The position numbers were made by a program, and so were the translations under genes. From the NCBI GenBank assembly GCA_963708045.1, contig OY970181.1, forward strand, positions 779,537 through 843,536: DNA of 64,000 bases, given 5' to 3'. This document shows positions 1,767 through 54,903 of the stretch, piece by piece. The first letter of the stretch is position 1. The number at the start of each line of letters is the position of its first letter. Origin of the DNA: an uncultured bacterium (GTDB lineage Bacteria > Patescibacteriota > Patescibacteriia > CAIQCM01). Below the pieces are notes generated by a model. The model was not told the DNA's origin and did not search any database. It saw only the letters and a program-made list of their open reading frames with translations.

Positions 1767-2047
1767 ATTTACGCTTAATTCTTACAAGCCACACACTACC
1801 GCGCCTGTCCCGGGTGCCTAGTCCCAGAAGTAGGCAAGCTGTTGGTAACTAAAACCTTTACATAAAGGCTTTTTATGTTAGTATTCAAATGTCTCTACTC
1901 AACTTAAGCTCGGGCTTTTGCTCGAACCGGATAGCGCGCTTTAAGCGGCATCCGGATAAAACAACTCTTGCACTATCCAGTGCTTTAGTTGGGTAGAGAC
2001 ACCTCCGGGTGTCGCTTTTGTTTTATAAGCACATCCGAATCGAAGAT

Positions 2048-8139: not shown

Positions 8140-8143
8140 ATAT

Positions 8144-9404: not shown

Positions 9405-10659
9405 ATCTTTTTATGATTAGGGTACAAAAGACGGGATCGATTTCACACAGAAAGGCGCGGCGCTTCATCTGCTCGCAACAGGAAAGAGTAGAGCCAGAAC
9501 CGCCGAATAAGTCCAAGACAGTATCGCCGGGTTTGGTACAACGGCGCATGGCTTTTTCATGAAGTGTCGTTGGTTTTTCCGTCGGGTGCTCGTAGTCTTG
9601 CGCCGGAAGACGTTTGACGAGCCAGATGTTAAAGAGATCGATAATGTCGTCGATGGCGCGATTACCACTCGCGACTTCTTTATTCAACACCTCGTTAAGG
9701 TTTTGTATGCGTGGTACAAGGAACGGTTTGCCGCGTGTGCCATAGACGCAAGGCTCGTATGCCTTGTTGAACGCGACTTGCGGAGTCATATTAAAGTTAT
9801 TTTTGACCCAAAGGCAGACGCGTCGATTAACAATGCCTAGTTCCTCGTATAAACTCTGAACCAATCCGATACTCGCTTCGTCGCACCAGAAGAAAACATG
9901 CGTATTCGGTTTTGCGACCGCAAGACCATTTTCCATCGCTCGCTTTAAGAATAGGCGATAGTCAGCATGCGTCTTTTTATCGTTTGTTTCACCGCCGTAT
10001 TTTCCTGATGTGCTGATGCCTTTGCTGTAATCAAGGGAAATGTTATACGGAGGGTCGCTGTAGATCATGTCGATTTGGTTTTTGCCTACCAATCGTTTAA
10101 TCAACTTCGGGTCGGTTGAGTCGGAACACAGCAAGGTATGGCTTCCCAGCCGATACATTTCGTCCAGCTTAACGGTTGGTTTTTTAATCGCGGCAAGTTC
10201 CTTTTCAGTATCAAAATCGTCGTCCTCGGCTTCAAGCGAATCGTCCCAGACATTACCCAAGTCGATATCGTCGAAACCAGCATCAAGAAGCATTTCGATA
10301 TCAAACTCCTTGAGCATCTCAAAGTCCCATGATCCGTGAGCGCGATTTAGCGTTAGATTCAACGCCTTTTCTTTTTCGATATTCGGTATGTTCACGAAGA
10401 CCGCCGGAATTTCGGTGATGCCAAGTTCCTTTGCGCAGGCAACCCGCATATGGCCACCGATTAGGACGCCTTTCCGCGCAGGCGCGGAATTGACCAGCAC
10501 AGGATCAACTAACCCGTACTTTAAGATGCTTTCTTTTAACGTCGCCTTTTCGGACTCTGACCATTTTCTGGGGTTATAGATGGCCGGTTGTAACGATCCG
10601 ATCGGGATATATTGAACGGCGATTTTTGTGTCGTCGTGAGTTAGTATATTTTTTGGCAT
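9364..10659 (-). CDS. ParB-like nuclease domain fused to DNA methyltransferase (phage-type ParB-MTase)
   Basis: N-terminal ParB/Srx-like segment 'IPIGSLQPAIYNPRKW...GGHMRVACAKELG'. It is followed by 'MIYSDPPYNISLDY' and 'DLFGGSGSTLSCCEQMKRRAFLCE' MTase motifs. The track start (10725) is a TTG. The first ATG is at 10659. Confidence 0.8.
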   Translation of the reverse strand: MPKNILTHDDTKIAVQYIPIGSLQPAIYNPRKWSESEKATLKESILKYGLVDPVLVNSAPARKGVLIGGHMRVACAKELGITEIPAVFVNIPNIEKEKALNLTLNRAHGSWDFEMLKEFDIEMLLDAGFDDIDLGNVWDDSLEAEDDDFDTEKELAAIKKPTVKLDEMYRLGSHTLLCSDSTDPKLIKRLVGKNQIDMIYSDPPYNISLDYSKGISTSGKYGGETNDKKTHADYRLFLKRAMENGLAVAKPNTHVFFWCDEASIGLVQSLYEELGIVNRRVCLWVKNNFNMTPQVAFNKAYEPCVYGTRGKPFLVPRIQNLNEVLNKEVASGNRAIDDIIDLFNIWLVKRLPAQDYEHPTEKPTTLHEKAMRRCTKPGDTVLDLFGGSGSTLSCCEQMKRRAFLCEIDPVFCTLIIKRYEALTKNKAVRIG

Positions 10660-10701
10660 ATTTTTAGAAGAGATATGAAGAGTAAGCACAGAAATAAAAA
10701 T

Positions 10702-10763
10702 GCCCACCTCGCGGAGATGAGTCAAAATCTAAAAAGACTTTGGTTAATCTCTGCGAAGTGGGC
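10702..10763 (-). terminator. long stem-loop (17-bp imperfect stem) followed by a T-run on the minus strand
   Basis: 'gcccacctcgcggagat' (10702-10718) pairs with 'atctctgcgaagtgggc' (10747-10763) with 2 mismatches. On the minus strand the stem is followed by 'attttta ttt'. It lies between the 149-aa minus-strand ORF and the ParB-MTase gene. Confidence 0.35.
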
Positions 10764-12057: not shown

Positions 12058-12663
12058 ATGAACAACCTCCACCGAACGCAGTCTAAGCTCTTGGAACTCC
12101 TTAAGGAGAACCAGACAGAGCCATTGACCATGATGGAGCTGAAGGAAGAAATGAGCCTCTCGTCCACGAGCGTGGTTTTTCACCATATACGCCAACTAGA
12201 GAAGAAAGGTCTTTTACGTCGTAACCCGGCAAACCCTAACGACTATCAGGTACTCTCGGAAGACGATAAAGATAAAAAGATTGCTTATTTAAATTTATAC
12301 GGTTTGGCCCAATGCGGTCCTCATGGAACCATCTTAGAAGATACGCCGGTTGATCGAATTCCTATTTCAACACAGATACTTGGTTTTTCGTCCACCGATG
12401 CGTTTTTGGTTCGCGCACGTGGTAACTCGATGGTGCCGAAAATATACAATAACGATCTTGTTATCGTAAAGAAGACTGAAAATATAAACGATGGCGATGT
12501 TGCCGTATGTGTAAATGAAGGTGAGGCTCTAATTAAGAAGGTAAGAAAGATAGACTCAAAAATATTTTTATTTTCTGAAAATCACGAATTTGAATCTTTT
12601 CCAGCGAGCGATGATTTCCGCGTTGTTGGCGTGGTAAGAGGTGTGCTTTCCTACACGATCTAA
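12058..12663 (+). CDS. LexA/CI-like transcriptional repressor (HTH + S24 peptidase domain)
   Basis: N-terminal winged-HTH 'MMELKEEMSLSSTSVVFHHIRQLEKKGLL'. The C-terminal S24 domain has 'GNSMVP' (Ser nucleophile) and a downstream Lys ('LIKKV'). Confidence 0.8.
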   Translation: MNNLHRTQSKLLELLKENQTEPLTMMELKEEMSLSSTSVVFHHIRQLEKKGLLRRNPANPNDYQVLSEDDKDKKIAYLNLYGLAQCGPHGTILEDTPVDRIPISTQILGFSSTDAFLVRARGNSMVPKIYNNDLVIVKKTENINDGDVAVCVNEGEALIKKVRKIDSKIFLFSENHEFESFPASDDFRVVGVVRGVLSYTI

Positions 12664-15222: not shown

Positions 15223-16545
15223 ATGCTATTCATAACAATGCATTTTAAAATTCATATGCCCGGCCACATTGATACCGATATCCAATATTGCCTCTACGCG
15301 AGAAAAAGTACCGAATCGGAAGAACGCCAATCGCTATCAATAGAATCCCAGATTAAAGAAATGACCCGGGTCGCAGAACGTGATCGGTTGGTTATTAAAG
15401 AAATCAAACGCGAAAGCCGGTCGGCAAAATCACACGGCGGTCGTCAGGTTTTTAACGATCTCATCAACGAAATTAGCCAAGGTAAATTTACCGGCATCGT
15501 CGCTTGGTCGCCGGATCGGTTAAGTCGCAATGCAGGTGATTTAGGTGTCTTGGTAGATTTGATGGATGCTGGAAAGCTTTTAGAAATTCGGACTTTTAAC
15601 CAAAGATTTACAAATTCGCCAAACGAAAAGTTTTTACTCATGATCTTGGGTAGCCAGGCCAAACTTGAGAATGATAATCGGAGCGTTAACGTAAAGCGGG
15701 GGATGCGGGCGCGGGTTGAGATGGGGTTATGGCCGGGAGTGTCACCGCTGGGCTATCTTAATCAATACCGAACCGATAAGAAGTGCGAGATTATAGTTGA
15801 TGAAGCTCGTGCACCAATAATCAAGCAGATGTTCAAGAAAGTCGCCGACGAAAAATGGACAACGCGCGATATACATAAATGGCTTAAGGATACCGGTTTT
15901 AAAACTCGTGGAGATAAACCCCTCGCTTATAGCGGTGTGCAGCGAATGCTGACGAACTCTTTTTACTACGGAAGATTTGAATACCCAAGGAACAGCGGCA
16001 AATGGCATACCGGTAAACACGAGCCGATAATTACCAAAGATTTATTCGAACGGACACAACAAAGATACCGCCGCCTTTCTTATAAAAGTAAAGTAAGGGA
16101 ATTTTCATTCGTTCGGCTTTTTACCTGCGGCCTTTGCGGATCTGGAATATCCGCCAGCGAAAAGTTTAAAAATCTCAGCGACGGCACGGTTGCGCGTTAT
16201 ATTTATTACAACTGCAACCTCGGTAAAGATAGGTTTTGTAAAAATACATCTATTAGGGAGGAGGAGCTAATTAAGGAGTTGATTAAGGTTGTCGATACTG
16301 CCGAAATTGACGAACTTGGTATCCGTCATAAATTTGAAAATGAAGTTGAACGATTTGGAAAATTCAACAATTACATTCTCGGAAAACCTACTGATCTAAA
16401 GCCCGAAGAAATTGACATAAATATCCGCGCGTACGCCAAGTATGTCCTCATGGACGGATCAAAAAGCGAAAAACGAGAGCTGCTCGGCCACCTGCGAAGT
16501 CGCTTGGTTTATACGCACAAAAGGTTTAAGCTACTCCCGTCTTAA
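15223..16545 (+). CDS. large serine recombinase, paralog of the 456..1766 gene
   Basis: 'YCLYARKSTESEERQSLSIESQ', 'DRLSRN', and zinc ribbon 'CGLCGSG...YYNCNLGKDRFC'. It aligns by eye along its whole length with the first recombinase (roughly half identical). Orientation is inverted relative to the first. Confidence 0.9.
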   Translation: MLFITMHFKIHMPGHIDTDIQYCLYARKSTESEERQSLSIESQIKEMTRVAERDRLVIKEIKRESRSAKSHGGRQVFNDLINEISQGKFTGIVAWSPDRLSRNAGDLGVLVDLMDAGKLLEIRTFNQRFTNSPNEKFLLMILGSQAKLENDNRSVNVKRGMRARVEMGLWPGVSPLGYLNQYRTDKKCEIIVDEARAPIIKQMFKKVADEKWTTRDIHKWLKDTGFKTRGDKPLAYSGVQRMLTNSFYYGRFEYPRNSGKWHTGKHEPIITKDLFERTQQRYRRLSYKSKVREFSFVRLFTCGLCGSGISASEKFKNLSDGTVARYIYYNCNLGKDRFCKNTSIREEELIKELIKVVDTAEIDELGIRHKFENEVERFGKFNNYILGKPTDLKPEEIDINIRAYAKYVLMDGSKSEKRELLGHLRSRLVYTHKRFKLLPS

Positions 16546-24275: not shown

Positions 24276-24671
24276 CTATTTGCTGTATTGATTTATAAAA
24301 TCCCTTGCTTCACAAAGAAGTAGTTTTGACGATAGGTTGTACCGTGCTTTGGTTTGTTTATAAAAATTTTGCTTGGCACGACTATAAGCTTCTATCCTAG
24401 TTTTGTCAGAAAAGGTGGCCGGAGAATTGCGGACTGCGCAGGTGCAAATTTTACTTTCATCTGTTTTGGCATCGCTTTGTTGCAAATACGCGGTATCGTC
24501 CATACACGACAGCATATCATTTTTATATTTGCGTTCTAACAAAAGTGGTTGAATAAGGTCTGGACCAATCGCGATTAACGCGATAATGCCAATTATCGAT
24601 CCGCCGATGATCTTATTTTTGAGCGCCTTCTTTTTTATTTTTAAGTCATCTGTCGGTTCGTGAGAATCCAT
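24276..24671 (-). CDS. hypothetical membrane-anchored protein (131 aa)
   Basis: N-terminal TM 'IIGGSIIGIIALIAIG'. No motif. Confidence 0.4.
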   Translation of the reverse strand: MDSHEPTDDLKIKKKALKNKIIGGSIIGIIALIAIGPDLIQPLLLERKYKNDMLSCMDDTAYLQQSDAKTDESKICTCAVRNSPATFSDKTRIEAYSRAKQNFYKQTKARYNLSSKLLLCEARDFINQYSK

Positions 24672-24879: not shown

Positions 24880-25275
24880 CTATTTGGTGCAGTCGTTGAA
24901 TTCCATATCGCAGTTGCTTACGCATCTGCTTTGCGCGGAGTAGTCCACTTCTTGGCCGTAAGTTGCCGGATGACAGGCGTTCCAGCACATTTTTCTTCTA
25001 AGGTAACACGAACTGGTATTACGCACTGGCGCTGGCGCGGAATACGACGGTGGAGCGCTGTAGGTGACCGGCGCAGGTGCTGCTTGATTGTTCATGCTGG
25101 CACTTAGCCCGTTGGCGAAGTTGGCGAAAATCATGGCTCGTTGCGCTTCTTCTTGCTGCTCCTGTACCCATTGAGCGCATTTGCCCTGCTCGTATTCCAC
25201 GTTATTCTTTTCGCAAAAAGCAGGCGTGCACCCGCTCGCAGCGATACAAAGCACCAAGATCAATGTACTCTTCAT
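24880..25275 (-). CDS. small Cys-rich secreted lipoprotein (131 aa)
   Basis: Signal peptide with lipobox 'LCIAASGC'. About 11 Cys in the mature part. Confidence 0.45.
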   Translation of the reverse strand: MKSTLILVLCIAASGCTPAFCEKNNVEYEQGKCAQWVQEQQEEAQRAMIFANFANGLSASMNNQAAPAPVTYSAPPSYSAPAPVRNTSSCYLRRKMCWNACHPATYGQEVDYSAQSRCVSNCDMEFNDCTK

Positions 25276-29199: not shown

Positions 29200-29469
29200 A
29201 TACTTGTATCTTACACCCAAACCGGGACAGGACCGCTTATTGACGACATACTGGTATACTGCAAAACAATTCTCTGTGATTTGACTGACTAAGACGCCGT
29301 GAGTGAAAAATTCGCCAAGGCGTCTTTCTTAATTAAAAAATCGCCGGTTTATAAACCGATACTCTGACTTGTCCAGATATTTATCTTGAAGAGAGTGGAC
29401 GAAAATGTTATCTTAAGTAGTGAGCATCAATTAATCGAAAGCCGTATTTATTTGTACATCCAAGTTTCT

Positions 29470-32400
29470 ATGAAAAAAGTTTTTGGGACAATACTCTTGG
29501 TAGTCTTGGTGTTGGTGGGCTTCCTTGAACATGTTCCAAATGCTTCCGCTGCCGTGGACTGGGTTGCGTATAATGACGCCGGAGGGTCAGCCAATTTTGC
29601 ATCAACGGGAAATGTCACCAACTATAGTTTTACGCAAGCAAGCGCGGCTAATTTATTGAAATATGCCGATGGCACCAGCTCTGGCGTCACGGTTGCTTTT
29701 GCCGGAACCAACAATGGAGTGTACGCCGCTGCCGATGGTACTTACGCTAGTCCATACGTAACATCAAGCACGGATGCTTATAATGAATTAGTCGGCGGTG
29801 GAACGCCCATTATCAATTTGGGTTATGCCAGCCAAGTAACAACAACCAACACCATCACCATGACTTTGAGTGGTGTTTCGTCTGCCAAAACTTATGATTT
29901 GGTGATGTTTGGCGACCGTGGCAACAGTACCTATACGACCAGATACACCAAATACACCGTATCGGGCGTTCAAAGCGGGTTTGTGAACGCAAGTTCTACG
30001 GGCGCTACGAAAGCCACAACGACTTTGGCAAATGATTCAACATATTATTGTACAGGGTTCAACTATACTGCGGGTTATGTTGCAAAGTGGACCGGTTTGG
30101 TTCCGACAGGTACCACCATAACGGTCACTATTAAAGGGGTGGATGCAACCGGAGCGAGTGTCAGCATGACCGCTTATCTTAACGCCTTCAAGCTCACCCA
30201 AAATACCCCAACTTCTATCGTCGCGCCGACCGTTACGGCTTCGGCCGCGAGCACTATTACGGCGAACGGTGCTGACTTAAACGGTAATATCACTGTTGAT
30301 GGGGGAGAGTCCGCTACTGCAAGAGGTTTCCATTATGGTCTCACCGCTTCATACGGTTCAACTTCTACCACCTCCGGAACATACGGCACGGGCGCGTATT
30401 CGCAAACTATTTCCGGCTTAACTTGCAACACTCTTTACCATTACAGATCTTTTGCCACGAACTCGGGCGGCACCGGCACGTCGGCGGACGGCACTTTTAC
30501 CACCTCGGCGTGTTCCGCGCCGACCGTTACGGCTTCGGCTGCGAGCACTATCACGACCACTGGTGCTGATTTGAATGGTAATATCACGGCTGACGGCGGA
30601 GCCGCTCCTACCGCCAGGGGTTTTTATTATGGAACCACCGTTTCGTACGGCTCGACCTCTTCCACGACCGGCACATACACCACGGGTACATATTCCCAAA
30701 GCATTACTGGTTTAACCTGCAATACTCTTTATCATTATCAGGCCTTTGCTACTAACTCCGGTGGTACAGGGACCGCGACCGATGGAACCTTCACCACTGC
30801 GGCATGTCCTGTTGCGCCTACTGTTACAGCTTCAGCCGCTAGCTCGATTACGACTACTGGTGCGACCTTGACCGGCAACATTACCGCTACTGGTGGGGAA
30901 AATGCCACTGCAAGAGGTTTTCATTATGGAACCACTGTTTCATACGGTTCAACTTCTACCACTTCCGGTTCGTATGGCACTGGTGAATATACGCAAGACA
31001 TTACTGGCTTAACTTGCAACACTCTTTATCATTACCGATCTTTCGCCACTAACTCAGGCGGTACCGGCACCTCGTCGGACAACACCTTCACCACTGCGGC
31101 ATGTCCTGTTGCGCCAACTGTTACAGCTTCAGCTGCTAGCTCGATTACGACCACTGGCGCGACCTTGACCGGCAACATTACCGCTACTGGTGGGGAAAAT
31201 GCCACCGCAAGAGGTTTTCATTATGGACTCACCGCTTCATATGGTTCAACTTCTACCACTTCCGGTTCGTATGGCACTGGTGAATATACGCAAGACATTA
31301 CTGGCTTAAGCGCCAATACCATTTACCATTACAGGTCTTTTGCTACTAACTCGGGTGGCACCAGCACCTCTTCAGATAATACTTTCACCACCTCGGCTTA
31401 TTCGGTTCCCGGTGCCCCTACCAGCGCGGTCGCAACAGCCGGCAACACGCTAGCGTCCGTTGCTTTCACCGCCCCGGCATCGGACGGCGGCTCGCCCATC
31501 ACCGGCTACACCGTTACTTCAAGTCCGGGAAGTTTTACCGGCACAGGCGGCACTTCGCCGATCGTTGTTTCTGGTCTCACGAACGGCACGGCCTACACCT
31601 TTACGGTAACGGCGACGAATGTGGCTGGCACGGGTTCGGCTTCGACCGCCTCAAACTCGGTGACCCCGGCGCCCGCCGCGGGTTGGGTGGCGTATAACGA
31701 CGCTGGAGGATCGGGTACTTCGCCATCAACGGGCAATGTCACCAACGTCGCTTTTACGACGACGGCGGCAACTAATTTGGTGAAATATTCCGACAACACT
31801 AGTAGTGGTGTCACGGTTGCTTTTGCTAAAAGGGGTACCACTGGGACTTTTCAGTTGGGAGTCGCTGCCGAAGATACAGCTTCCAGCAACAGAGCATCTC
31901 CGTATGTAACATCTGGTACAGACGCCTACAATGAATTTGTCGGTGGGGGAACACCCATCATCAATTTGGGTTACGCGGGCCAAATAACGACAAACGGCAT
32001 TGTTGACATGACTTTGAGCGGCGTTTCGTCCGGTAAATCTTATGATTTAACGCTGGTGGCCTTGCGAGGTTATAACAACGCCAGTTATACAGGCAGGTAT
32101 ACGAAGACTATCGTATCGGGCGTCCAGGCAGGATTCACAAATGCCAGCTCGACCGGAACCACTATCACCACCACGACTTTGACGAACGATACCACGCGAT
32201 ATGTTGGGGGAGATAACTATGCGAACGGCTATGTTGCCAAGTGGACTGGTTTGGTTCCGACAGGCACCACCATATCCGTCTCATTTCAAGGTGTAGATTT
32301 GACTGGCGCAACCGGAGTAACCAACGCCCAAACCGCTTACCTTAACGCCTTCAAGCTCACCGAAAATGGTGCATCTTCAACAACTGTGCCGACCGTTACG

Positions 32401-35400
32401 GCCTCGGCCGCGACTTCGGTCACAGCTACCGGCGCCGCATTGAATGGCAATATCACAGCTGATGGCGGAGTCGCTCCGACCGCCAGAGGTTTTCATTATG
32501 GAACTACAGCTGCATACGGCTCGACCTCTTCCACGACCGGCACATATACCACGGGCACATATTCTCAAAGCATTACCGGCTTGACCTGCAATACCCTTTA
32601 TCATTACCGATCTTTTGCCACCAACTCGGCCGGTACCGCCACCTCGACGGACAGCACCTTCACCACCTCGGCGTGCTCCGCACCGGGAGCGCCGACCAGT
32701 GTTGTTGCGACAGGTGGCAATGCGCAAGCATCCGTCGCTTTCACGGCTCCGGCAAACGACGGTGGCTCGGCAATAACCGGCTACACCGTCACCTCAAGTC
32801 CGGGAAGTTTTACCGGCACAGGAAGTGCTTCGCCAATTGTCGTCACCGGACTCACGAACGGCACGGCATACACTTTCACAGTTACCGCGACGAATGCGAT
32901 CGGTACGGGTGCGGCTTCGACCCCCTCGAGTTCGATTACTCTGTCTACTGGAACAGGACCGCTCATTTCATCGGCGGCATCGCAGATGTTTTTGACGGGT
33001 AGTGCCGCGGCTGCGATTTCTACGATAACCGTAACCGACAATACTCTTACTCCGTACATAACGGCCGCTAACGACATCCGCATCAAAATTCCTTCTGGCT
33101 TCAACATGGTCTGGGATTCGACGGATACCGCCGCCACTATTGGTGGAGCGGCGTCAGCTCATGTATCGGGAACGGTTTCGTACGAAGACGCGGATAAGAC
33201 CCTGGTCATTAATGTCAGCGAAAATTTTGCTGTTAGCGACGTAATAACCATTTCCGGCCTGTCTTTCAAGACCTTCAGCGCGGCGTCCGTGGCCGATAAT
33301 TTGGAATTGGAGGTCAACAATGCCGGCACGACAATCGCCGTGGATGACAAGACGATTTCCATCACCGCAGTGACTGTTTCTTCTGCTGCTAACCAGACAT
33401 TTACCGTCGCAGATCCGACAACCGCGATGTCGCAAATTACCGTCACTGACAGCGCTTCGTCTCCGTATATAACGGCTACCAACGACATCAGGATCAAAAT
33501 TCCAGCCGGCCTCGACATGACTTGGGATGCAGCTGCTTTGGGAAGCGTTGTTATTGGCGGCGCAGCATCGGCCAAGATTAGCACCTCGGGAGGTCTTGAT
33601 TCGCCGTACACGCCGATCGTTAACTTGCACAGGGCGAACTTGCACGGGCATACCACGAATAGCGACGGCGCCCAGACGGCGTTCGGCCTACATGACTTCA
33701 TATTTGAACCTCGGTTATTCGGCGGCCGCCATCACTGATCACGATTATTTCACGCCCAACCCGAGCGTTTCTGGCATTACCCACGTGAGGGGTGTTGAGA
33801 ACACGGCCAATGCCGCCGGTGGAATGGGGGATATGGCTTCGTTTGGCATAACTTCATTTTTGTCGTCAAACAGGCAGACACAGGTCGATACCTATACGAG
33901 CCAAGGAGGTGTTTCTAGCGTCAACCATCCTATCACCGGTTGGACTAACGCCGGCACGGTGAATTTGAATGGCTACACAAATATGGAAGTCTTCAACTCC
34001 CATTACGGGGATTTGGAGCCGTATGTTGACTATGCGTTAAGCAACGGCAAACAGTTTTGGCTTGTTGCGAACGATGACCTTCATACTACTATTCAGATAT
34101 ACCGTGCTTGGAACGAGTTAAACAGCTCAAAGACCGTCGGAAACCTTACCGAAGCCGATGTCGTGAATATAATAAAAAGCGGCGATTTCTATGCTTATGG
34201 CAGAGGGGACAGAAGCAATGCTCCTGCTGCAGATCAACAGTACGGCAGTTTGCCGACCCCAGCTAAGTTTACGGGCATTACGGTGAGTGGTTACGCGGTT
34301 ACCGCTAATATCGATAAGAGCGCCAACATACAATTCATCACGAAAAACGGGACGATTTCGCAAACCAACAATAGTGTGACGACAGCCAGCTATACAGCGT
34401 CGCTCACTGATATTTATGTCAGGGTAAAGGTGTCCTACACTTCCGGGGGAAAAACCGCATACTCATTCAGCAACCCGATTTACATAACGGAGTCGGGCCC
34501 GGCGGCAGTTTCTTTGGAAGACAGCGGCAAGACGCTGGTCATCGATGTTGGAACTAACTTTGTTGCAGGTGACGCAATAACTATTTCGGGATTAAAATTC
34601 AACAACTTTACTACAGCGGGTTCCGGTAATTTGACCTTGTCGGTTAGCGGATCGGGAGCCACGGTAAATGACACTGACGACAAAACGATAACCATTGAAT
34701 CGGGATTACTGACCCCGACCGCTTCCATCACCAACACACCCCGGTCATACAACGGCTCGGCTCAAACCGCGACTGTCGCCTGTACAGGCGGAGGCACTGC
34801 CACGATCGCATCGGGCGGAACCGGAACTGATGCAGGGTCGTATGCGACCACGGTGAACTGCGCCGCGAGCGCTGGCTATGAAGCTGCGACAGGACTTTCA
34901 GCAGGAAACTTTGTTATCTCCAAAGCAACTCCAACTGCCTCCATCACCAACACACCCCGGTCATACAACGGCTCAGCTCAGACGGCGAACGTTGCTTGTT
35001 TAGGTGGAGGCGCCGCTACAATAAACACTGGCGGAACTGGCACCAATGCTGGTTCATACGCAACCACGGTTGATTGCGCCACGAGCACTAACTACTCCGC
35101 AGCAACAGGACTTTCAGCAGGGAACTTTGTTATTGAAAAAATAGCCCCTACTGCTTCCATCACTAATTCGTCTCAGCCATACACTGGCTCAGCGCAGACC
35201 GCGACTGTTGCTTGCTTGGGTGGAGGAACTGCCACGCTTGCGTCAGGTGGAACCGGAACTGATGCAGGTTCGTATGCAGCCACCGTCAACTGTGCCACGA
35301 GCACCAATTATTCCGCAGCTACGGGACTTTCAGCAGGAAATTTCGTTATTGAAAAAATAGCTCCGACTGCTTCTATCACCAACACGCCACGGTCATACAC

Positions 35401-38400
35401 CGGCTCAGCTCAGACGGCGAACGTTGCTTGTTTAGGTGGAGGCGCCGCTACAATAAACACCGGTGGAACTGGCACAAGCGCTGGTTCATACGCAACCACG
35501 GTTGATTGTGCCACGAGCACTAACTACTCTGCAGCAACAGGACTCTCAGCGGGAAATTTCGTTATTGAAAAAATAGCTCCAACTGCCTCCATCACCAACA
35601 CGCCTCAGTCATACAACGGCTCGTCGCAAACCGCGAACGTTGCTTGTTTAGGTGGAGGAACTGCCACGCTTGCCTCAGGTGGAACTGGAACTGATGCAGG
35701 ATCGTATGCAGCCACCGTCAACTGCGCCGCGAGCACCAACTACTCTGCAGCAACAGGACTTTCGGCAGGAAATTTCGTCATTGAAAAAATAACTCCAACT
35801 GCTTCCATCACCAACACGCCTCAGTCATACAACGGCTCGTCGCAAACCGCGAACGTTGCTTGTTTAGGTGGAGGAACTGCCACGCTTGCCTCAGGTGGAA
35901 CTGGAACTGATGCAGGTTCATACGCAACCACGGTTGATTGTGCTACGAGCACCAACTACTCTGCAGCAACAGGACTCTCGGCCGGAAACTTCGTCATTTC
36001 CAAAGCAACTCCGACTGCTTCCATCACCAACACGCCCCGGTCATACAATGGTTCAGCTCAAACCGCGACCGTCGCCTGTACGGGCGGAGGCGCCGCTACA
36101 ATAAACACCGGTGGAACTGGCACAAGCGCTGGTTCATACGCAACCACAGTTGATTGTGTTGCAAGCACAAACTACTCCGCCGCCACGGGACTTTCGGCGG
36201 GTGACTTCGTCATTTCCAAAGCAACTCCAACTGCCTCCATCACCAACACACCCCGGTCATACAATGGTTCAGCTCAAACCGCGACTGTTGCTTGTTTGGG
36301 TGGAGGTGCCGCTACAATAAACACTGGCGGAACTGGCACCAATGCTGGAACATACGCAACCATGGTTGATTGCGCCACAAGCACCAACTACTCTGCAGCC
36401 ACCGGACTTTCAGCAGGGAACTTTGTTATTGAAAAAATAGCTCCAACTGCTTCCATCACCAACACACCCCGGTCATACAATGGTTCAGCTCAAACCGCGA
36501 CTGTTGCTTGTTTGGGTGGAGGTGCCGCTACAATAAACACGGGTGGAACTGGCACCAATGCTGGAACATACGCAACCACGGTTGATTGCGCCACAAGCAC
36601 CAACTATAATGCCGCCACCGGATTATCGGCAGGCGACTTCGTAATCTCTAAGATTGCTCCTACCGCTTCCATCACCAATTCGTCTCAGCCATACACTGGC
36701 TCAGCGCAGACGGCGACTGTTGCTTGTTTAGGTGGAGGCGTTGCCACGCTTGCGTCAGGTGGAACTGGAACTGATGCAGGATCGTATGCAGCTATAGTTG
36801 ATTGCGCCACAAGCACCAACTACTCTGCAGCCACCGGACTTTCAGCAGGGAACTTTGTTATTGAAAAAATAGCTCCAACTGCTTCCATCACTAATTCGTC
36901 TCAGCCATACACTGGCTCAGCGCAGACTGCGACTGTCGCCTGTACAGGCGGAGGCGCCGCTACAATAAACACCGGTGGAACTGGCACAAGCGCTGGTTCA
37001 TACGCAACCACGGTTGATTGTGCCACGAGCACCAACTACTCCGCAGCAACAGGACTCTCGGCAGGAAATTTCGTTATTGAAAAAATAGCCCCAACTGCTT
37101 CCATCACTAATTCGTCTCAGCCATACACTGGCTCAGCGCAGACCGCGACTGTTGCTTGTTTAGGTGGAGGCGTTGCAACGCTTGCCTCAGGCGGAACCGG
37201 AACTGATGCAGGTTCGTATGCAGCCACCGTCAACTGCGCCGCGAGTACCAACTACAATGCCGCCACCGGATTATCGGCAGGCGACTTCGTAATCTCTAAG
37301 ATTGCTCCTACTGCCTCCATCACCAATTCGCCTCAGTCATACAACGGCTCAGCGCAGACTGCGACTGTCGCCTGTACAGGCGGAGGCGCCGCTACAATAA
37401 ACACCGGTGGAACTGGCACAAGCGCTGGTTCATACGCAACCACAGTTGATTGTGTTGCAAGCACAAACTACTCCGCCGCCACGGGACTTTCGGCGGGTGA
37501 CTTCGTCATTTCCAAAGCAACTCCAACTGCCTCCATCACCAACACACCCCGGTCATACAATGGTTCAGCTCAAACCGCGACTGTTGCTTGTTTGGGTGGA
37601 GGTGCCGCTACAATAAACACTGGCGGAACTGGCACCAATGCTGGAACATACGCAACCATGGTTGATTGCGCCACAAGCACCAACTACTCTGCAGCCACCG
37701 GACTTTCAGCAGGGAACTTTGTTATTGAAAAAATAGCTCCAACTGCTTCCATCACTAATTCGTCTCAGCCATACACTGGCTCAGCTCAGACCGCGACTGT
37801 TGCTTGTTTAGGTGGAGGCGTTGCCACGCTTGCGTCAGGTGGAACTGGAACTGATGCAGGATCGTATGCAGCTATAGTTGATTGCGCCACAAGCACCAAC
37901 TACTCTGCAGCCACCGGACTTTCAGCAGGGAACTTTGTTATTGAAAAAATAGCTCCAACTGCTTCCATCACTAATTCGTCTCAGCCATACACTGGCTCAG
38001 CGCAGACTGCGACTGTCGCCTGTACAGGCGGAGGCGCCGCTACAATAAACACCGGTGGAACTGGCACCAATGCTGGAACATACGCAACCATGGTTGATTG
38101 CGCCACAAGCACCAACTACTCTGCAGCCACCGGACTTTCAGCAGGGAACTTTGTTATTGAAAAAATAGCTCCAACTGCTTCCATCACTAATTCGTCTCAG
38201 CCATACACTGGCTCAGCTCAGAACCGCGACTGTTGCTTGTTTAGGTGGAGGCGTTGCCACGCTTGCGTCAGGTGGAACTGGAACTGATGCAGGATCGTAT
38301 GCAGCTATAGTTGATTGCGCCACAAGCACCAACTACTCTGCAGCCACCGGACTTTCAGCAGGGAACTTTGTTATTGAAAAAATAGCTCCAACTGCTTCCA

Positions 38401-41400
38401 TCACTAATTCGTCTCAGCCATACACTGGCTCAGCGCAGACTGCGACTGTCGCCTGTACAGGCGGAGGCGCCGCTACAATAAACACCGGTGGAACTGGCAC
38501 AAGCGCTGGTTCATACGCAACCACAGTTGATTGTGTTGCAAGCACAAACTACTCCGCCGCCACGGGACTTTCGGCGGGTGACTTCGTCATTTCCAAAGCA
38601 ACTCCAACTGCCTCCATCACCAACACACCCCGGTCATACAATGGTTCAGCTCAAACCGCGACTGTTGCTTGTTTGGGTGGAGGTGCCGCTACAATAAACA
38701 CTGGCGGAACTGGCACCAATGCTGGAACATACGCAACCATGGTTGATTGCGCCACAAGCACCAACTACTCTGCAGCCACCGGACTTTCAGCAGGGAACTT
38801 TGTTATTGAAAAAATAGCTCCAACTGCTTCCATCACTAATTCGTCTCAGCCATACACTGGCTCAGCTCAGAACCGCGACTGTTGCTTGTTTAGGTGGAGG
38901 CGTTGCCACGCTTGCGTCAGGTGGAACTGGAACTGATGCAGGATCGTATGCAGCTATAGTTGATTGCGCCACAAGCACCAACTACTCTGCAGCCACCGGA
39001 CTTTCAGCAGGGAACTTTGTTATTGAAAAAATAGCTCCAACTGCTTCCATCACTAATTCGTCTCAGCCATACACTGGCTCAGCGCAGACTGCGACTGTCG
39101 CCTGTACAGGCGGAGGCGCCGCTACAATAAACACCGGTGGAACTGGCACCAATGCTGGAACATACGCAACCACGGTTGATTGTGTTGCAAGCGCTAACTA
39201 CTCTGCAGCTACAGGACTTTCAGCAGGGAACTTCGTCATTGAAAAAATAACTCCAACTGCTTCCATCACTAATTCGTCTCAGCCATACACTGGCTCAGCG
39301 CAGACGGCGACTGTTGCTTGTTTAGGTGGAGGCGTTGCCACGCTTGCGTCAGGTGGAACTGGAACTGATGCAGGATCGTATGCAGCTATAGTTGATTGCG
39401 CCACAAGCACCAACTACTCTGCAGCCACCGGACTTTCAGCAGGGAACTTTGTTATTGAAAAAATAGCTCCAACTGCTTCCATCACTAATTCGTCTCAGCC
39501 ATACACTGGCTCAGCGCAGACTGCGACTGTCGCCTGTACAGGCGGAGGCGCCGCTACAATAAACACCGGTGGAACTGGCACAAGCGCTGGTTCATACGCA
39601 ACCACAGTTGATTGTGTTGCAAGCACAAACTACTCCGCCGCCACGGGACTTTCGGCGGGTGACTTCGTCATTTCCAAAGCAACTCCAACTGCCTCCATCA
39701 CCAACACACCCCGGTCATACAATGGTTCAGCTCAAACCGCGACTGTTGCTTGTTTGGGTGGAGGTGCCGCTACAATAAACACTGGCGGAACTGGCACCAA
39801 TGCTGGAACATACGCAACCATGGTTGATTGCGCCACAAGCACCAACTACTCCGCAGCAACAGGACTTTCGGCTGGAAACTTTGTTATTGAAAAAATAACT
39901 CCAACTGCTTCCATCACCAATTCGTCTCAGCCATACACTGGCTCAGCGCAGACCGCGACTGTTGCTTGTTTGGGTGGAGGTGCCGCTACAATAAACACCG
40001 GTGGAACTGGCACTAACGCCGGGTCATATGCGACCACGGTTGATTGCGCCACAAGCACAAACTACTCCGCAGCAACGGGACTCTCGGCAGGAAACTTTGT
40101 TATTGAAAAAATAACTCCTACAGCTTCCATCACTAATTCGTCTCAGCCATACACTGGCTCAGCGCAGACGGCGACTGTTGCTTGTTTAGGTGGAGGCGTT
40201 GCAACGCTTGCCTCAGGTGGAACTGGAACTGATGCAGGATCGTATGCAGCTATAGTTGATTGCGCCACAAGCACCAACTACTCTGCAGCCACCGGACTCT
40301 CGGCAGGAAATTTCGTTATTGAAAAAATAGCCCCAACTGCTTCCATCACTAATTCGTCTCAGCCATACACTGGCTCAGCGCAGACCGCGACTGTTGCTTG
40401 TTTAGGTGGAGGCGTTGCAACGCTTGCCTCAGGCGGAACCGGAACTGATGCAGGTTCGTATGCAGCCACCGTCAACTGCGCCGCGAGTACCAACTACAAT
40501 GCCGCCACCGGATTATCGGCAGGCGACTTCGTAATCTCTAAGATTGCTCCTACTGCCTCCATCACCAATTCGCCTCAGTCATACAACGGCTCAGCGCAGA
40601 CTGCGACTGTCGCCTGTACAGGCGGAGGCGCCGCTACAATAAACACCGGTGGAACTGGCACAAGCGCTGGTTCATACGCAACCACAGTTGATTGTGTTGC
40701 AAGCACAAACTACTCCGCCGCCACGGGACTTTCGGCGGGTGACTTCGTCATTTCCAAAGCAACTCCAACTGCCTCCATCACCAACACACCCCGGTCATAC
40801 AATGGTTCAGCTCAAACCGCGACTGTTGCTTGTTTGGGTGGAGGCGTTGCAACGCTTGCCTCAGGCGGAACTGGAACTGACGCAGGTTCGTATGCAGCCA
40901 CCGTCAACTGTGCCACGAGCACCAATTATTCCGCAGCTACTGGACTTTCGGCAGGCGACTTCGTTATCTCCAAGGCCACTCCAACCGCTTCCATCACCAA
41001 TACGCCTCAGCCATACACTGGCTCCTCGCAGACCGCGACTGTTGCTTGTTTGGGTGGAGGAGCTGCTACTCTCGTTTCCGGCGGAACCGGCACCAGTGTG
41101 GGGTCGTATGAAGCCTTCGTTAACTGTGCTGCCAGCGCCAACTATAACGCCGCCTCGGGGCTTTCGGCGGGCTTCTTCATTATCGGAACAGTAGCCCCCA
41201 CTGCCTACATTACCAACTCACCTCAGCTATACACCGGTTCAGCACAGACCGCTACGGTGGCTTGCACGGGCGGAGGAGTAGCCACTATCGCTTTAGGCGG
41301 AGTCGGCACTAACATCGGTTCATATCCGACCACTGTGAACTGCGCCGCAAGTCCCGGATACGAAGCGGCTACCGGCCTAGACGCCGGGAGTTTCGTCATC

Positions 41401-44400
41401 TCCAAGGCCACACCCACCGCTTCAATCATCAATTCGCCGCAGGTATACACCGGCTCCTCGCAAACTGCGACTGTCGCTTGTTTGGGTGGAGGAACTGCCA
41501 CGCTTGCCTCAGGCGGAACCGGCACCAATGCGGGAACATATCCTGCAATCGTCAACTGCGCTGAAAGCACAAATTACAATGCAGCCACAGGCCTCTCGGC
41601 AGGAAACTTCGTCATTGAAAAAATAACTCCAACTGCCTCCATCACCAACACGCCTCGGTCATACAACGGCTCGGCGCAAACCGCCACGGTGGTATGTTTG
41701 GGCGGAGGAACTGCCACGCTTGCCTCAGGCGGAACCGGCACCAATGCGGGAACATATCCTGCAATCGTCAACTGCGCCGCGAGCACCAACTATAACACCG
41801 CCTCGGGACTTTCAGCAGGCGATTTCGTAATCTCTAAGATTGCTCCGACCGCTTCCATCACCAATACACCTCAGCCATACACTGGTTCCTCGCAAACTGC
41901 CGCTGTCGCTTGTTTGGGTGGAGGAGTAGCAACGATTGCGACCGGTGGTACTGGTACTGATGCAGGTTCATACGCAACCACGGTTGATTGTGCTACGAGC
42001 ACCAATTACTCCGCCGCCACAGGACTCTCGGCCGGAAATTTCGTCATCTCTAAAGTAACTCCAACTGCCTCCATCACCAACACACCACAGTCATACAATG
42101 GCTCAGCTCAGACGGCCGTCGTTGCTTGTTTGGGTGGAGGCGCCGCTACAATAAACACGGGTGGAACTGGCACAAGCGCTGGTTCATACGCAACCACCGT
42201 TGACTGCGCCACGAGCACCAATTATTCCGCAGCTACGGGACTTTCGTCAGGGAACTTTGTCATCTCTAAAATTGCTCCAACAGCTTCCATAACCAACTCG
42301 CCTCAGTCGTACACCGGTTCGTCGCAAACGGCGGCCGTGTCTTGCTTGGGCGGGGGCGCTGCCACGATTAATACAGGCGGAACCGGAACTGACGCGGGAA
42401 CATATCCGGCCACGGTTGACTGCGCCACAAGCACCAACTACTCCGCCGCTACGGGACTTTCGGCTGGAAATTTCGTCATCTCCAAAGCAACTCCTACGGC
42501 TTCCATCACCAATTCGCCTCAACCATATACCGGCTCAGTTCAGACCGCCATCGTTGCTTGTTCGGGCGGAGGTGTTGCCACGCTTGCCTCAGGCGGAACT
42601 GGAACTGATGAAGGTACATATCCTACAATCGTCAACTGCGCTGAAAGCGCCAACTACTCAGCCGCTACGGGACTTTCGGCAGGTGACTTCGTTATTGGAA
42701 AAATAAACCCGACCGCTTCCATCACCAATACGCCACGGTCATACAACGGCTCAGCTCGAGACGGCGACTGTCGTCTGTACGGGCGGGGGCACTGCTACAA
42801 TAAACACTGGCGGAACTGGAACTAACGCCGGATCGTATGCGACCACAGTTGATTGTGCCGCAAGCGCTGGTTACTTCGCAGCCACGGGACTTTCAGCAGG
42901 AAACTTTGTTATTGAAAAAATAGCTCCAACTGCCTCCATCACCAACTCACCACGGTCATACACTGGTTCAGCCCAAACAGCGAACGTTGCTTGTTTAGGT
43001 GGAGGCACCGCTACAATAAACACCGGTGGAACTGGCACTAATGCGGGAACATACGCAACCACGGTTGATTGTGCTACGAGCACCAATTACTCCGTCGCCA
43101 CAGGACTCTCGGCCGGAAATTTCGTCATCTCTAAAGTAACTCCGACAGCTTCCATAACCAACTCACCCCAAACACACACTGGCTCGTCTCAAACTGCCGC
43201 GGTTTCTTGTTTGGGCGGAGGTGTCGCAACGATAAACACAGGCGGAACCGGAACTAATGCGGGAACATACGCAACCACAGTTGATTGTGCCACGAGCACC
43301 AACCACTCCGCAGCCACCGGACTTTCAGCAGGCGACTTCGTTATCTCCAAGGCCACTCCAACTGCTTCTATCACCAATTCGCCGCAGCTATATAACGGTT
43401 CGGCTCAAACGGCCGTCGTGTCTTGTTTGGGTGGAGGTGTTGCGACGCTCGCATCTGGCGGAACCGGCACTAATGCTGGAACATATGCCGCAGTCGTCAA
43501 CTGCGGCACAAGCACTAACTACTCCGCCGCCACGGGACTTTCGGCAGGAAACTTTGTCATTGAAAAAATAACTTCAACTGCTTCCATAACCAACTCGCCC
43601 CAAACATACACCGGCTCGGCGCAAACCGCGAACGTCGCTTGCTTGGGCGGAGGTGCCGCTACAATAAACACCGGTGGAACTGGCACTAACGCCGGGTCAT
43701 ATGCGACCACTGTTAACTGCGCCACGAGCACTAACTACAGCGCGGCCTCGGGACTCGCGGCGGGCGACTTCGTAATCTCTAAAGCGACTCCGACTGCTTC
43801 CATCACCAACACACCCCAGACATACACTGGTTCCGCTCAAACCGCGAACGTTGCTTGCTTGGGCGGAGGCGTTGCGACTCTTGCCTCAGGTGGAACTGGA
43901 ACTGATGCAGGTTCGTATGCGGCCACCGTCAACTGCGCCGAAAGTGCTAACTACTCAGCGGCTACAGGACTCTCGGCGGGAAACTTCGTCATCGGCGCTA
44001 CCCCAGTGGTAATCAGCGTTGCGGCAATACCCGGAGTCACGATCCCTGTGAGAGCAGTAACTCCAGTGTCAACTATAGCTGACACTGGTGAATACACCGC
44101 GACAATTACATGGTCGCCTGTAAGTAATCCATTTGCAGCAAACACCGTTTATACGGCAACAATTACGATCACGCCCAATGCGGGTTATACCTTAACAGGT
44201 ATAGCAAGTAATTTCTTTACAGTAGCTGGAACAAGTATTCCAGCTACAAATTCAGCAGGATCTGGGGTGGTCACGGCAGTATTTCCGGCGACGGGATCTG
44301 CGCCTTCTAGCGGTGGCGGTGGCGGCGGCGGTGGTGGCGGCGGGTATTATGTTCCACCACCAATCGCTCCGGTTGTTTCTGTTACGCCCCCTGTGTTGAC

Positions 44401-45070
44401 TCCGGCTCCGGTTGTTCCTGTTACACCCACCGAGACTTCTCCAACTCCAACTCCAGCTCCAGCGGTTTCTGATCAGGATAAATTCAAAAAGAATTTAACC
44501 TACCTCACAACGAACTCGGATATACGCGAGTTGCAAAAATATTTTAACGCAAACGGCTTCATAGTTGCATCAAGAGGCGCTGGTTCGCCAGGCAAGGAAA
44601 CGGATTATTTCGGCGATTCAACCTTAAGCACTCTCATTAAATTCCAAGAAGCAAATAAAGATAAAGTTGTTGGATTAATTGATGAAAAAGGATATTTTGG
44701 TCCGATAACTCGACAATTGATCAATACGATAATAATCACAAATCCAACTCCAGCTCCAGCGGTTTCTGATCAGGATAAATTCAAAAAGAATTTAACCTAC
44801 CTCACAACGAACTCGGATATACGCGAGTTGCAAAAATATTTTAACGCAAACGGCTTCATAGTTGCATCAAGAGGCGCTGGTTCGCCAGGCAAGGAAACAG
44901 ATTATTTCGGTGATTCAACCTTAAGCACTCTCATTAAATTCCAAGAAGCAAATAAAGATAAAGTTGTTGGATTAATTGATGAAAAAGGATATTTTGGTCC
45001 GATAACTCGACAATTGATCAATACGACAATAATCACAAATCCAACTCCAGCTCCAGCCCAGCAACCCTAA
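29470..45070 (+). CDS. giant (about 15.6 kb) cell-surface repeat protein gene, reading frame interrupted by four +1 shifts (near 33690, 38222, 38871 and 42757). It is either a pseudogene or an indel/assembly error in the repeats
   Basis: Signal peptide 'MKKVFGTILLVVLVLVGFLEHVPNASA' at 29470. The protein theme then continues without stops across frame 1 (to 33738), frame 2 (to 38287), frame 3 (to 38936), frame 1 (to 42825) and frame 2 (to 45070). Domains: a duplicated roughly 230-aa N-module, five Fn3-like roughly 97-aa repeats plus two Fn3 domains, a PHP domain, about forty 72-aa repeats, a poly-Gly/Pro linker and 2 x PG_binding_1. Confidence 0.7.
30229..31392 (+). repeat. four tandem roughly 291-bp Fn3-like repeats (a fifth copy at about 32383-32676)
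   Basis: Repeated 'PTVTASAAS.IT..GA.L.GNIT..GG..ATARGFHYG.T.SYGSTS.TSG.YGTG.Y.Q.I.GLTCNTLYHYRSFATNSGGTGTS'. Confidence 0.7.
33600..34130 (+). other. PHP (polymerase and histidinol phosphatase) phosphoesterase domain embedded in the giant protein, split by the first frameshift
   Basis: Frame 1 carries 'NLHGHTTNSDGAQT' (PHP motif I, D/N-L-H-x-H-T-x-x-S-D-G). Frame 2 continues 'YLNLGYSAAAITDHDYF' (motif II, AITDHD) with the expected spacing of about 27 aa. Later come 'NMEVFNSHYG' and 'LVANDDLHT' (the G-S-D-A-H-like motif). Confidence 0.55.
34700..43990 (+). repeat. about 40 tandem 216-bp (72-aa) repeats with two conserved Cys per unit (count estimated from length, not counted exactly)
   Basis: Unit consensus 'PTASITN[ST][PS][RQ][SP]Y[NT]GS[AS]QTA[TN]VAC[LT]GGG.AT[IL][NA][TS]GGTGT[NDS]AG[ST]YA..V[DN]CA[TA]STNYSAATGLSAG[ND]FVI[ES]K[IA]'. 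Several subtypes are present. There are long near-identical blocks, e.g. 38221 vs 38870 (period 649 = 3x216+1). Confidence 0.8.
44455..45036 (+). repeat. near-identical tandem duplication (2 x about 291 bp) encoding peptidoglycan-binding (PG_binding_1-like) domains
   Basis: 'PTPAPAVSDQDKFKKNLTYLTTNSDIRELQKYFNANGFIVASRGAGSPGKETDYFGDSTLSTLIKFQEANKDKVVGLIDEKGYFGPITRQLINT' occurs twice with only a few synonymous nucleotide differences. The pattern matches PG_binding_1 (L..G....DG.FG..T..A...FQ...GL..DG..G..T...L). Confidence 0.6.
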
Positions 45071-54094: not shown

Positions 54095-54295
54095 TTAGAC
54101 GCGGCGAACGTTGGTCGCGCGAGGACCCTTTTCGGATTCCTCGGTTTCAAACGTTACCTTGTCGCCTTCGCGAAGTTGGTCGAAGGAAACGTCAACGAGG
54201 CTGGAGGAGTGAAAAAACACATCCTTAGCGCCGCCGTCTGGGGTGATGAATCCAAATCCTTTTTCGGATTGGATCCGCTTGATAACACCAGTCAT
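54095..54295 (-). CDS. cspA: cold-shock protein (CspA family)
   Basis: 'MTGVIKRIQSEKGFGFITPDGGAKDVFFHSSSL...GPRATNV' carries RNP1 'KGFGFI' and RNP2 'VFFHSS'. The track ORF extends to 54340. The ATG is at 54295. Confidence 0.85.
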   Translation of the reverse strand: MTGVIKRIQSEKGFGFITPDGGAKDVFFHSSSLVDVSFDQLREGDKVTFETEESEKGPRATNVRRV

Positions 54296-54903
54296 AGGTA
54301 TGATAAGTTTACGAATTAGTTCCGCAAATAGTGACCTCATTGCGGAAATTTTCGACGAATCTCCTGTGGGGTGTGATTTGCTTGTCTATAAGCTACCACA
54401 AACGACTAAATTAAGGAAGCCCGGCGGTTGTTTTGTATTAATTGACTTGGAAAGTCGGTTCTAGTAATCTCCAGCTTAGGAGGTTAGCACTTTTGAATCT
54501 AAAACCGCGTTTTCGCAAACGAACCGTCACAAGGAGAACAAAATGGTAGAATGGTCACGGTGGCAAAAAATGTCCAGGAAAGAACGTTGACAGCACTGCA
54601 TCAGTGAGGCTGCGTACTATCTTTCAGAGAAACGGAAAGGGGTGAAGAGTCACGAAACAGATGTCCAGGATTGGCGGGCGGCCGAGCAGCAGGTAGATAC
54701 GGACATCAGGCGTGGCAACATTGAGATCTAGCGCCCGTCATCGTTCCTACTAAGAACGCCGTTCGTTCCTGGTGTAAACGTCTGAATAATATGGGGTAGT
54801 TCCACCTGTTTGTTCAGACGTTTTTAATTAATAAATTTTTTAGCACAGATAATTAATAAAGGTGTATAATTAAAACGTTAACTTTTAATAATTAAAAATA
54901 TTT

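Follow-up and report, generated by a model that had tools for sequence, protein, structure and literature searches.

Four single-base frame shifts interrupt a giant repeat-rich surface-protein gene and may be consensus errors of a long-read assembly

A single plus-strand gene in the window, i.e., the 64,000-nucleotide stretch of DNA analyzed here, runs from an ATG at 29470 to a stop at 45070 and is open successively in frames 1, 2, 3, 1, and 2. We consider it somewhat probable that the four extra bases responsible are consensus errors of a long-read metagenome assembly and not part of the organism's DNA, and we favor this explanation over that of a real pseudogene. Once the four single bases are deleted, the gene becomes a 15,597-nt ORF of 5,198 codons with zero internal stops. 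The stop-free stretches on the plus strand (frame 1, 29368 to 33738; frame 2, 33521 to 38287; frame 3, 38169 to 38936; frame 1 again, 38818 to 42825; frame 2 again, 42707 to 45070) and their translations, in which a 72-aa repeat carries on across the frame switches, bear out the progression of frames given in a preliminary description of this DNA. When the unedited sequence is translated from ATG 29470, a stop is reached at 33738 after 1,422 aa, and each of the four shifts on its own stops translation within about 20 to 25 codons. The gene is the largest of the genome: at 15.6 kb it takes up about 1.3% of a contig whose length is at least 1.19 Mb. Beyond the four extra bases, the 15.6 kb contain no nonsense codon, deletion, or other indel, and TRF gives 0% indels for the 9.3-kb repeat array.

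The product is most likely a secreted, peptidoglycan-anchored, adhesin-like protein of about 5,200 aa, encoded by a gene that is essentially intact apart from the extra bases. It begins with a probable Sec signal peptide (MKKVFGTILLVVLVLVGFLEHVPNASA, encoded at 29470 to 29550), judged from the translation by eye without a predictor. The N-terminal part contains 3.6 copies of a 297-bp (99-aa) tandem repeat (30319 to 31391) and a fibronectin type III domain (32689 to 32931, the better of two Pfam fn3 stretches). A PHP-like domain (HGHTTNSDG...ITDHD, 33589 to 34498) lies within a beta module and is broken by the first shift; its match to PF02811 is weak, at 20.6 bits under a cut-off of 26.4 bits. 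The 9-kb array inside the 1.19-Mb contig comprises 43 tandem 216-bp (72-aa) MBG-like units (34712 to 44002), with a homogenized center containing exact repeats of up to 551 bp and a divergent 3' third. Downstream are two 297-bp repeats, 98% alike (44442 to 45057), each carrying one PG_binding_1 domain per Pfam, and these two domains are the predicted C-terminal cell-wall anchor.

The array units were modeled with AlphaFold as all-beta, with five strands and a pLDDT of 92; a fold search with this model retrieved no significant PDB match. Three window units reach only 16.2 bits (E = 0.011) against MBG_3 (PF18887), below the gathering cut-off of 25. The homologue P0121, which is 51% identical to the window units, scores 93.5 bits (E = 8.8e-27) against the same family, so the window units would be tied to MBG_3 by transitivity only, via P0121. 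The architecture is that of MBG_3-type proteins, i.e., tandem all-beta units of about 70 aa (here 43 x 72 aa) in a secreted surface protein with a signal-like N-terminus and PG_binding_1 domains, although the units fall under the Pfam cut-off and no solved structure matches significantly. In the collection searched, no full-length homologue of the whole protein was found, and the N-terminal domain retrieved only four remote matches of about 260 aa each.

Shift 1 (frame 1 to 2) is one extra base somewhere in GCCCAGACGGCGTTCGGCC at 33670 to 33688; the sequence there is unique and separates the conserved SDG from the conserved YM residues of the PHP-like motif. The homologue P0012, 50% identical, is uninterrupted across this point with equal spacing. 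Shift 2 (frame 2 to 3) is an extra A at 38222 that turns CAGACC into CAGAACC, and shift 3 (frame 3 to 1) is the same extra A at 38871 in a second copy of the block, both sites reading CAGAACCGCG. Shift 4 (frame 1 to 2) is an extra G at 42758 that turns CTCAGACGG into CTCGAGACGG. The unit it interrupts is divergent, its best paralogue being identical at 176/216 positions, and 31-mers are unique around 42,216 to 42,931. The preliminary description had placed four shifts between 38200 and 42780; there are indeed four, but only three lie in that interval, shift 1 being well upstream, and the extra G, which it had put at 42757, lies one base further on. The two extra A's it reported are present as described, and its blocks of about 440 bp, spaced by 649 bp, are an exact 444-bp repeat, extra A included, at 38057 to 38500 and, offset by 649 bp, at 38706 to 39149. 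A third copy of the unit concerned ('J', block X1, 37736 to 37951) lacks the extra base and is 216/216 identical to both shifted units minus their extra A, which makes shifts 2 and 3 clean one-base insertions. Because these two shifts are copies within the exact repeat, there are three independent events, not four, and all three are +1 insertions. None of the insertions lies at a homopolymer or short tandem repeat (A1 becomes A2, a G stands between C and A, and one base is unplaced), and 22/22 A6 runs within the gene stay in frame.

All three independent events lie in or adjoin the 9-mer CAGAC[CG]GCG or a one-base variant of it, and two of the three fall in one 3-nt stretch of the repeat unit. 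The array holds 11 intact copies of the 9-mer, and the single plus-strand copy elsewhere is inside the 19-nt interval of shift 1; the window's one reverse-strand copy, in a cold-shock gene at 54095 to 54340, is intact. At the column of shifts 2 and 3, 24 units have G and 18 have A (CAGACC versus CAAACC), and CAGAACC reads as both alleles of this paralogous G/A site in series. Shifts 1 and 4 can also be written as an A/G site giving GA. For shift 4, a merge of paralogous units was rejected, as the A of CAG is invariant in the 42 units tallied, which leaves a variant at strain level as the sole possible second allele. Also rejected, as a general explanation, was a generic k-mer-specific basecalling error at CAGACGGCG, as motif copies elsewhere are intact. 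The window encodes methyltransferases at 2009 to 3742 and 8607 to 10725, and if one of them modified the 9-mer or part of it, basecalling errors linked to the motif would be accounted for.

If the extra bases are consensus errors, a read pile-up over a hypervariable, internally repetitive gene would mix two alleles at one site, contributed by paralogous units or by co-existing strains, and an indel-dominated error model would then have the consensus write both alleles in series, adding one base. We infer a nanopore/Flye-type assembly as the source, and reads in which the extra bases lack support. The double allele at shifts 2 and 3 favors this account, and so does the same signature in the homologous arrays of two related contigs: GCGACGG/GCAACGG becomes GCGAACGG in L006, and GGCGCG/GGCTCG becomes GGCGTCG in L004. 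Both arrays also show GGG-to-GG deletions, and a third contig, L003, has about 12 frame changes over 21 unit matches. Similar indels therefore occur in comparable assemblies of homologous sequence (L003, L004, and L006), as expected of an artifact. Comparing L003 with L006 to obtain an error profile was rejected, as the two are only 87% identical and thus represent different organisms. The repeat's closest relatives are found only in ENA assemblies with contig_N names, where indels split the arrays and do not spare even a housekeeping gene, that for aspartyl-tRNA synthetase. We suspect the Microflora Danica long-read project as the origin of these assemblies; it combined Flye with one round of Medaka (PMC12313526).

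Bacterial pseudogenes have a deletion bias, so that decay should bring deletions, and nonsense changes as well. That every change here is +1, with no other decay, therefore speaks for consensus error. So do the clustering of the events at one 9-mer, far beyond random mutation, and the lack of any frame change in 118 homologous units from 30 loci of other genomes. In being split by single-base indels into adjacent ORFs in successive frames, and in sharing serial-allele insertions and G-run deletions with the homologous arrays of Flye-style contigs, the case resembles known long-read consensus errors. If so, it is a caution that a few consensus indels can cut the giant repetitive surface-protein genes of long-read metagenome genomes into several 'genes', distorting gene counts, pseudogene calls, and largest-protein estimates.

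Other observations count against consensus error. Nanopore consensus indels are typically errors in the length of homopolymers (PMC9262707), and 0/4 sites here are in a homopolymer. The unit at 37736, with its context identical over about 440 bp, lacks the A, and common descent is the simplest way to relate the two shifted copies. Shifts 1 and 4 are in unique or divergent sequence, where the reads of different units should not be confused; the suggestion in the preliminary description that errors arose in collapsed repeats could therefore apply at most to shifts 2 and 3. The many exact repeats of 300 to 551 bp speak for a very low rate of random error in the array. Finally, the 9-mer is without an indel in 22/22 copies in the printed rows of L004 and L006, and three nanopore-derived arrays from Verrucomicrobiae are intact.

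The extra bases may instead be real frameshifts in a recently inactivated giant adhesin gene, as a pseudogene or as an allele dominant in the sampled population, an explanation that we regard as possible but less probable than consensus error. The A would then have arisen in one 'J' unit, and unequal crossing-over or gene conversion would have carried it to a second copy, the array being still under homogenization. In support of this, there is no difference between the two shifted units or between their 444-bp surroundings, and a third, otherwise identical unit is without the A, which is a pattern of descent; two of the three events are in unique or divergent sequence; and the frame is broken where homologues are continuous (P0012 at shift 1 and the 118 units), as expected of a pseudogene. 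The 48 kb of flanking sequence provide further support: no split gene was found among 30 flanking ORFs scanned with Pfam, nor was a frameshift detected in these ORFs despite 36 flank runs of at least 7 bases, which also sets the window apart from the usual long-read case. The contexts of the shifts differ from the homopolymers where long-read errors concentrate (PMC9262707), and there is a precedent in Staphylococcus aureus, where a frameshift in strains Mu50 and N315 divides the 33-kb ebh gene into ebhA and ebhB (PMC3868527). Like ebh, the window gene encodes a repeat-rich, wall-associated surface protein, is the largest of its genome, and carries single-base frameshifts where relatives are uninterrupted; it differs in having four interruptions instead of one, all +1 and tied to one short motif.

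Several of the features given above weaken the case for real mutation. All three events are +1, the 15.6 kb are otherwise free of deletions, nonsense codons, and indels, and the clustering of the events at one 9-mer, two of them within the same 3 nt, is unexpected from random mutation. We know of no mutational mechanism that predicts such clustering at a 9-mer. Real spontaneous indels, too, favor homopolymer runs, but none has hit the 22 A6 runs. Were the insertions real, they would amount to a recent inactivation of the usual kind in an adhesin-like gene, as with ebhA/ebhB, in which only a 1,422-aa N-terminal fragment is made, without the repeat array and wall anchor, and they would illustrate that a frameshift can propagate inside an array by unit duplication. 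Consensus error and real, copied mutation are thus the two interpretations offered in the preliminary description that stay viable; the third, phase-variation-like switching, is unsupported, as discussed below.

It is quite improbable that the extra bases are both real and linked to CAGAC(C/G)GCG, through a sequence-specific process, be it a site-directed mutational hotspot or a recoding signal, by which one base is repeatedly inserted or tolerated there. Wider interest would attach to this unlikely reading alone: a motif-linked process acting in an uncultivated bacterium with a small genome to split or modulate the gene of a giant surface protein.

Reversible switching, in which the extra bases toggle expression of the C-terminal part by slippage or unit recombination, is less probable still. 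The array is clearly recombining, as its exact repeats of up to 551 bp attest, and the loss or duplication of a 649-bp block would move the downstream frame by one. As in contingency loci, one-base length changes alter the reading frame of a surface protein, but the simple repeat tract or homopolymer that characterizes those loci is absent at all sites. Each shift ends translation alone, so that the protein would not be restored by any one recombination event, and recombination between units could remove shifts 1 and 4 only if it had a clean donor unit.

Least probable of all is programmed +1 ribosomal frameshifting at a shared signal (GCY-CAG-A or GCU-CGA-G, then C[CG]GCG), by which the full-length protein would be made from the sequence as given: the direction of the shifts, the recurring local sequence, and the fully open frame downstream of every shift recall systems of the prfB and Ty1/Ty3 type, but neither P-site codon, CAG or CGA, can re-pair in the +1 frame, the zero-frame codons that follow (ACG, AAC, and GAC) are ordinary rather than hungry, no Shine-Dalgarno-like stimulator is read upstream of the sites, downstream folding is no better than in shuffles (z from -1.35 to +0.17) and the same as at in-frame control sites, the 11 in-frame motif copies would be mis-shifted, and homologues have no shift at these positions. 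With no repeat tract, slippery site, or structure, and with the 118 homologous units unshifted, neither switching nor programmed frameshifting is supported. The check for uninterrupted homologues proposed in the preliminary description thus gave continuous frames, both in P0012 over shift 1 and in these units.

Exact-pattern scans of genome and metagenome contig collections, with either allele allowed, found no other assembly of the locus. The strain is nevertheless present in the read sets ERR15459707 and ERR12035931, in which the flanking proteins are 100% identical. A look-up in the k-mer-based Logan contigs matched neither the truncated products of shifts 1 and 4 nor eight hypothetical unshifted products, but with the positive control absent too, these negatives carry no information. 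Repeated 31-mers predict that Logan contigs should end at 30675 and 47170, and both ends were observed.

The giant gene is interrupted by single extra bases that carry its frame forward four times. In the sequence as given, the ATG at 29470 yields 1,422 aa and then a stop; translations show a single protein running on across all frame switches at 29.4-45.1 kb, through open + strand stretches at 29368-33738 (frame 1), 33521-38287 (frame 2), 38169-38936 (frame 3), 38818-42825 (frame 1) and 42707-45070 (frame 2), which confirms the preliminary description's four +1 shifts in successive frames. When four single bases are deleted, one 5,198-codon ORF with no internal stops results. Shifts 2 and 3 (38222 and 38871, + strand) are an extra A, CAGACC becoming CAGAACC, and shift 4 (42758, + strand) is an extra G, CTCAGACGG becoming CTCGAGACGG. 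Shift 1 falls in a 19-nt window (33670-33688, + strand) between the conserved SDG and YM of a PHP-like motif, so the region first proposed for all four, 38200-42780, holds for shifts 2, 3 and 4 and not for shift 1. A PHP-like homologue, P0012 (50% identical), is uninterrupted across the shift-1 point, with the same SDG-YM spacing. Shifts 2 and 3 do lie 649 bp apart in near-identical blocks, as had been described: both sit inside an exact 444-bp repeat (38057-38500 and 38706-39149, offset 649). The third copy of the shifted unit, at 37736-37951, is 216/216 identical and has no extra A. There are three independent insertion events, one occurring twice.

Homologues, to which the preliminary description had pointed for an unbroken frame, do have one in named genomes, where 118 recognisable units in 30 loci contain no frame change; among them are three arrays of 13-16 units in a nanopore-derived Verrucomicrobiae genome. 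Close relatives at the protein level, reaching 76-77% identity, come only from the ENA assemblies ERZ25039459, ERZ25039503 and ERZ25039539, as short fragments; the contigs there are named Flye-style and the arrays in them are broken. The frame changes about 12 times over 21 unit hits in contig L003 and three times over 19 in L006, where an aspartyl-tRNA synthetase gene is split too. When broken units of contigs L004 and L006 were set against in-frame neighbour units, two indel types were read: a G-run deletion (GGG to GG), and an insertion in which a unit-variable site is written with both alleles in series, as in L006 (GCGACGG/GCAACGG to GCGAACGG) and L004 (GGCGCG/GGCTCG to GGCGTCG). One L004 unit (10343-10561) carries the GGG to GG deletion and the GGCGTCG insertion 50 nt apart, so that its frame is restored; the two are consensus errors or, alternatively, a compensated pair. 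We suspect that these assemblies, and perhaps the source of the window, stem from a Flye and Medaka nanopore project (PMC12313526).

In the giant gene, the column beside shift 2/3 has 24 G and 18 A among the units, and the shift reads as G and A alleles in series, the pattern also read in L004 and L006; shifts 1 and 4 allow the same notation, an A/G site becoming GA. The extra bases may well be a consensus artefact, which we regard as somewhat more likely than ordinary pseudogenisation. The readings first offered are narrowed to these two, the regulatory switch being dropped, and either would be ordinary.

Real inactivating mutations are a possible, less favoured explanation. The two units with the extra A seem to share an ancestor, with the identical third unit unshifted; shifts 1 and 4 occur where the sequence is unique or divergent (best paralogue 176/216); and the shift contexts are not homopolymers, the contexts in which nanopore consensus errors are concentrated (PMC9262707). 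Moreover, no split gene was seen in the flanking ORFs checked, exact repeats of 300-551 bp argue that random error in the array is very low, and giant adhesin genes split by frameshift have a precedent in ebhA/ebhB (PMC3868527). Against real mutation, each of the three events is a +1 insertion, the 15.6 kb hold no deletion, nonsense codon or other indel, and the events cluster at the 9-mer CAGAC[CG]GCG. Such clustering is not predicted by random mutation and could arise from a systematic effect of consensus building or basecalling.

Of the 12 occurrences of the 9-mer on the + strand, 11 belong to the array and the remaining one (33673) falls within the shift-1 window. All three independent insertions are in or adjoin this motif (33673; 38216-38225; 38865-38874; 42755-42765), for which a rough, post hoc estimate of the chance probability is about 1e-4. 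Shifts 2/3 and 4 break it at one common 3-nt stretch of the repeat unit, and every array unit with a shift has GCTCAGCTCAG (GCTCA twice) just upstream. A generic k-mer error was considered and is countered by 22 clean copies among the L004 and L006 rows listed and by the clean sole reverse-strand copy in the window; a systematic effect would need local allele mixtures or organism-specific DNA modification. The window encodes candidate modifiers, a Type III-like mod/res pair (2009-3742, 3746-6076) and two further N6/N4 DNA methyltransferases (8607-9404 and, with a ParB-N domain, 9364-10725). That a real motif-specific process lies behind the insertions is very improbable.

Nothing favours a regulatory or recoding mechanism. 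The phase-variation-like switching initially suggested, if recombinational, is highly unlikely: homopolymers and short tandem repeats are absent from all four sites, the gene's 22 A6 runs are all in frame, and translation terminates about 20-25 codons after each shift, so that expression could not be regained through one recombination event alone. Programmed frameshifting is similarly far-fetched, as the codons at the shifts are unable to re-pair in the +1 frame, no upstream stimulator was seen, the 90-nt downstream stretches show no stronger folding than shuffled sequence and do not stand out from in-frame control sites, and 11 copies of the local motif stand in frame.

The architecture of the reconstructed product suggests a giant secreted, wall-anchored, adhesin-like protein. 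A signal-peptide-like N-terminus is followed by a twice-repeated region of 99-aa repeats and fn3 domains, three beta modules, the array of 43 tandem 72-aa units (34712-44002, + strand), an Ig-like stretch and a poly-glycine linker, and two PG_binding_1 domains within a 297-bp duplication (98% identical). The N-terminal domain (AVDWVAYNDAGG...) is duplicated at 29550-30250 and about 31690-32390, and has only four remote relatives (P0150-P0153) among 5.8 billion protein clusters, all of ~260 aa, three of the four with a PEP-CTERM sorting signal. The third beta module (ITVTD...IRIKIP...ISGL.F) carries a PHP-like phosphoesterase-type insert at 33589-34498, a weak match under cut-off (PF02811, 20.6 bits). 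The same arrangement also stands alone in the 602-aa P0012 (L001 4629-6437), next to FtsH and aspartyl-tRNA synthetase on an unrelated metagenome contig. The unit's own MBG_3 score is under threshold, and homologues 51% identical to it match MBG_3 (E = 8.8e-27); AlphaFold confidently models the unit as a small all-beta domain (pLDDT 92) with no significant relatives among solved structures. Eleven glycines in a row are encoded in frame by a GGC/GGT run (44310-44343) between the Ig-like region and a proline-rich linker; this run is the gene's only true simple-sequence tract, where real length variation is plausible.

Units 71-82% identical occur in Acidobacteriota, Chloroflexota and Geobacteraceae genomes (L007-L016: Chloracidobacterium, Pyrinomonadales, Anaerolineales, Geobacteraceae), and the giant gene has a G+C of 52-55% against 38-45% in its flanks. 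This cross-phylum identity and raised G+C suggest horizontal spread of the repeat module; the high G+C could also stem from composition (Thr/Ala/Gly/Ser = 58%).

The source contig is 1,188,223 bp long. In the flanks of the giant gene are, among others, genes for an M23 peptidase, for rhamnose-nucleotide synthesis, for a pilin-like protein and for an [FeFe] hydrogenase, together with a prophage-like region; among the ORFs scanned in the flanks none is split and all look full length. Window 1-21000 is a prophage-like or integrated element, to which the mod/res pair and the two N6/N4 methyltransferases belong; it also has two large serine recombinases, at 456-1766 (- strand) and 15223-16545 (+ strand), a LexA-like repressor (12058-12663) and the large subunit of a terminase (6646-8199, - strand). 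No second assembly of the locus turned up when genome and metagenome collections were scanned for exact patterns. The window's strain is also present in Logan assemblies of ERR15459707 and ERR12035931, in which contig ends agree with a 31-mer model at 30675 and 47170; predicted cut products had no look-up matches, nor did the positive control. Two adjacent - strand ORFs, 24276-24671 and 24880-25275, are both 131 aa long, and an independent Logan contig has ORF calls of the same lengths at the syntenic site.
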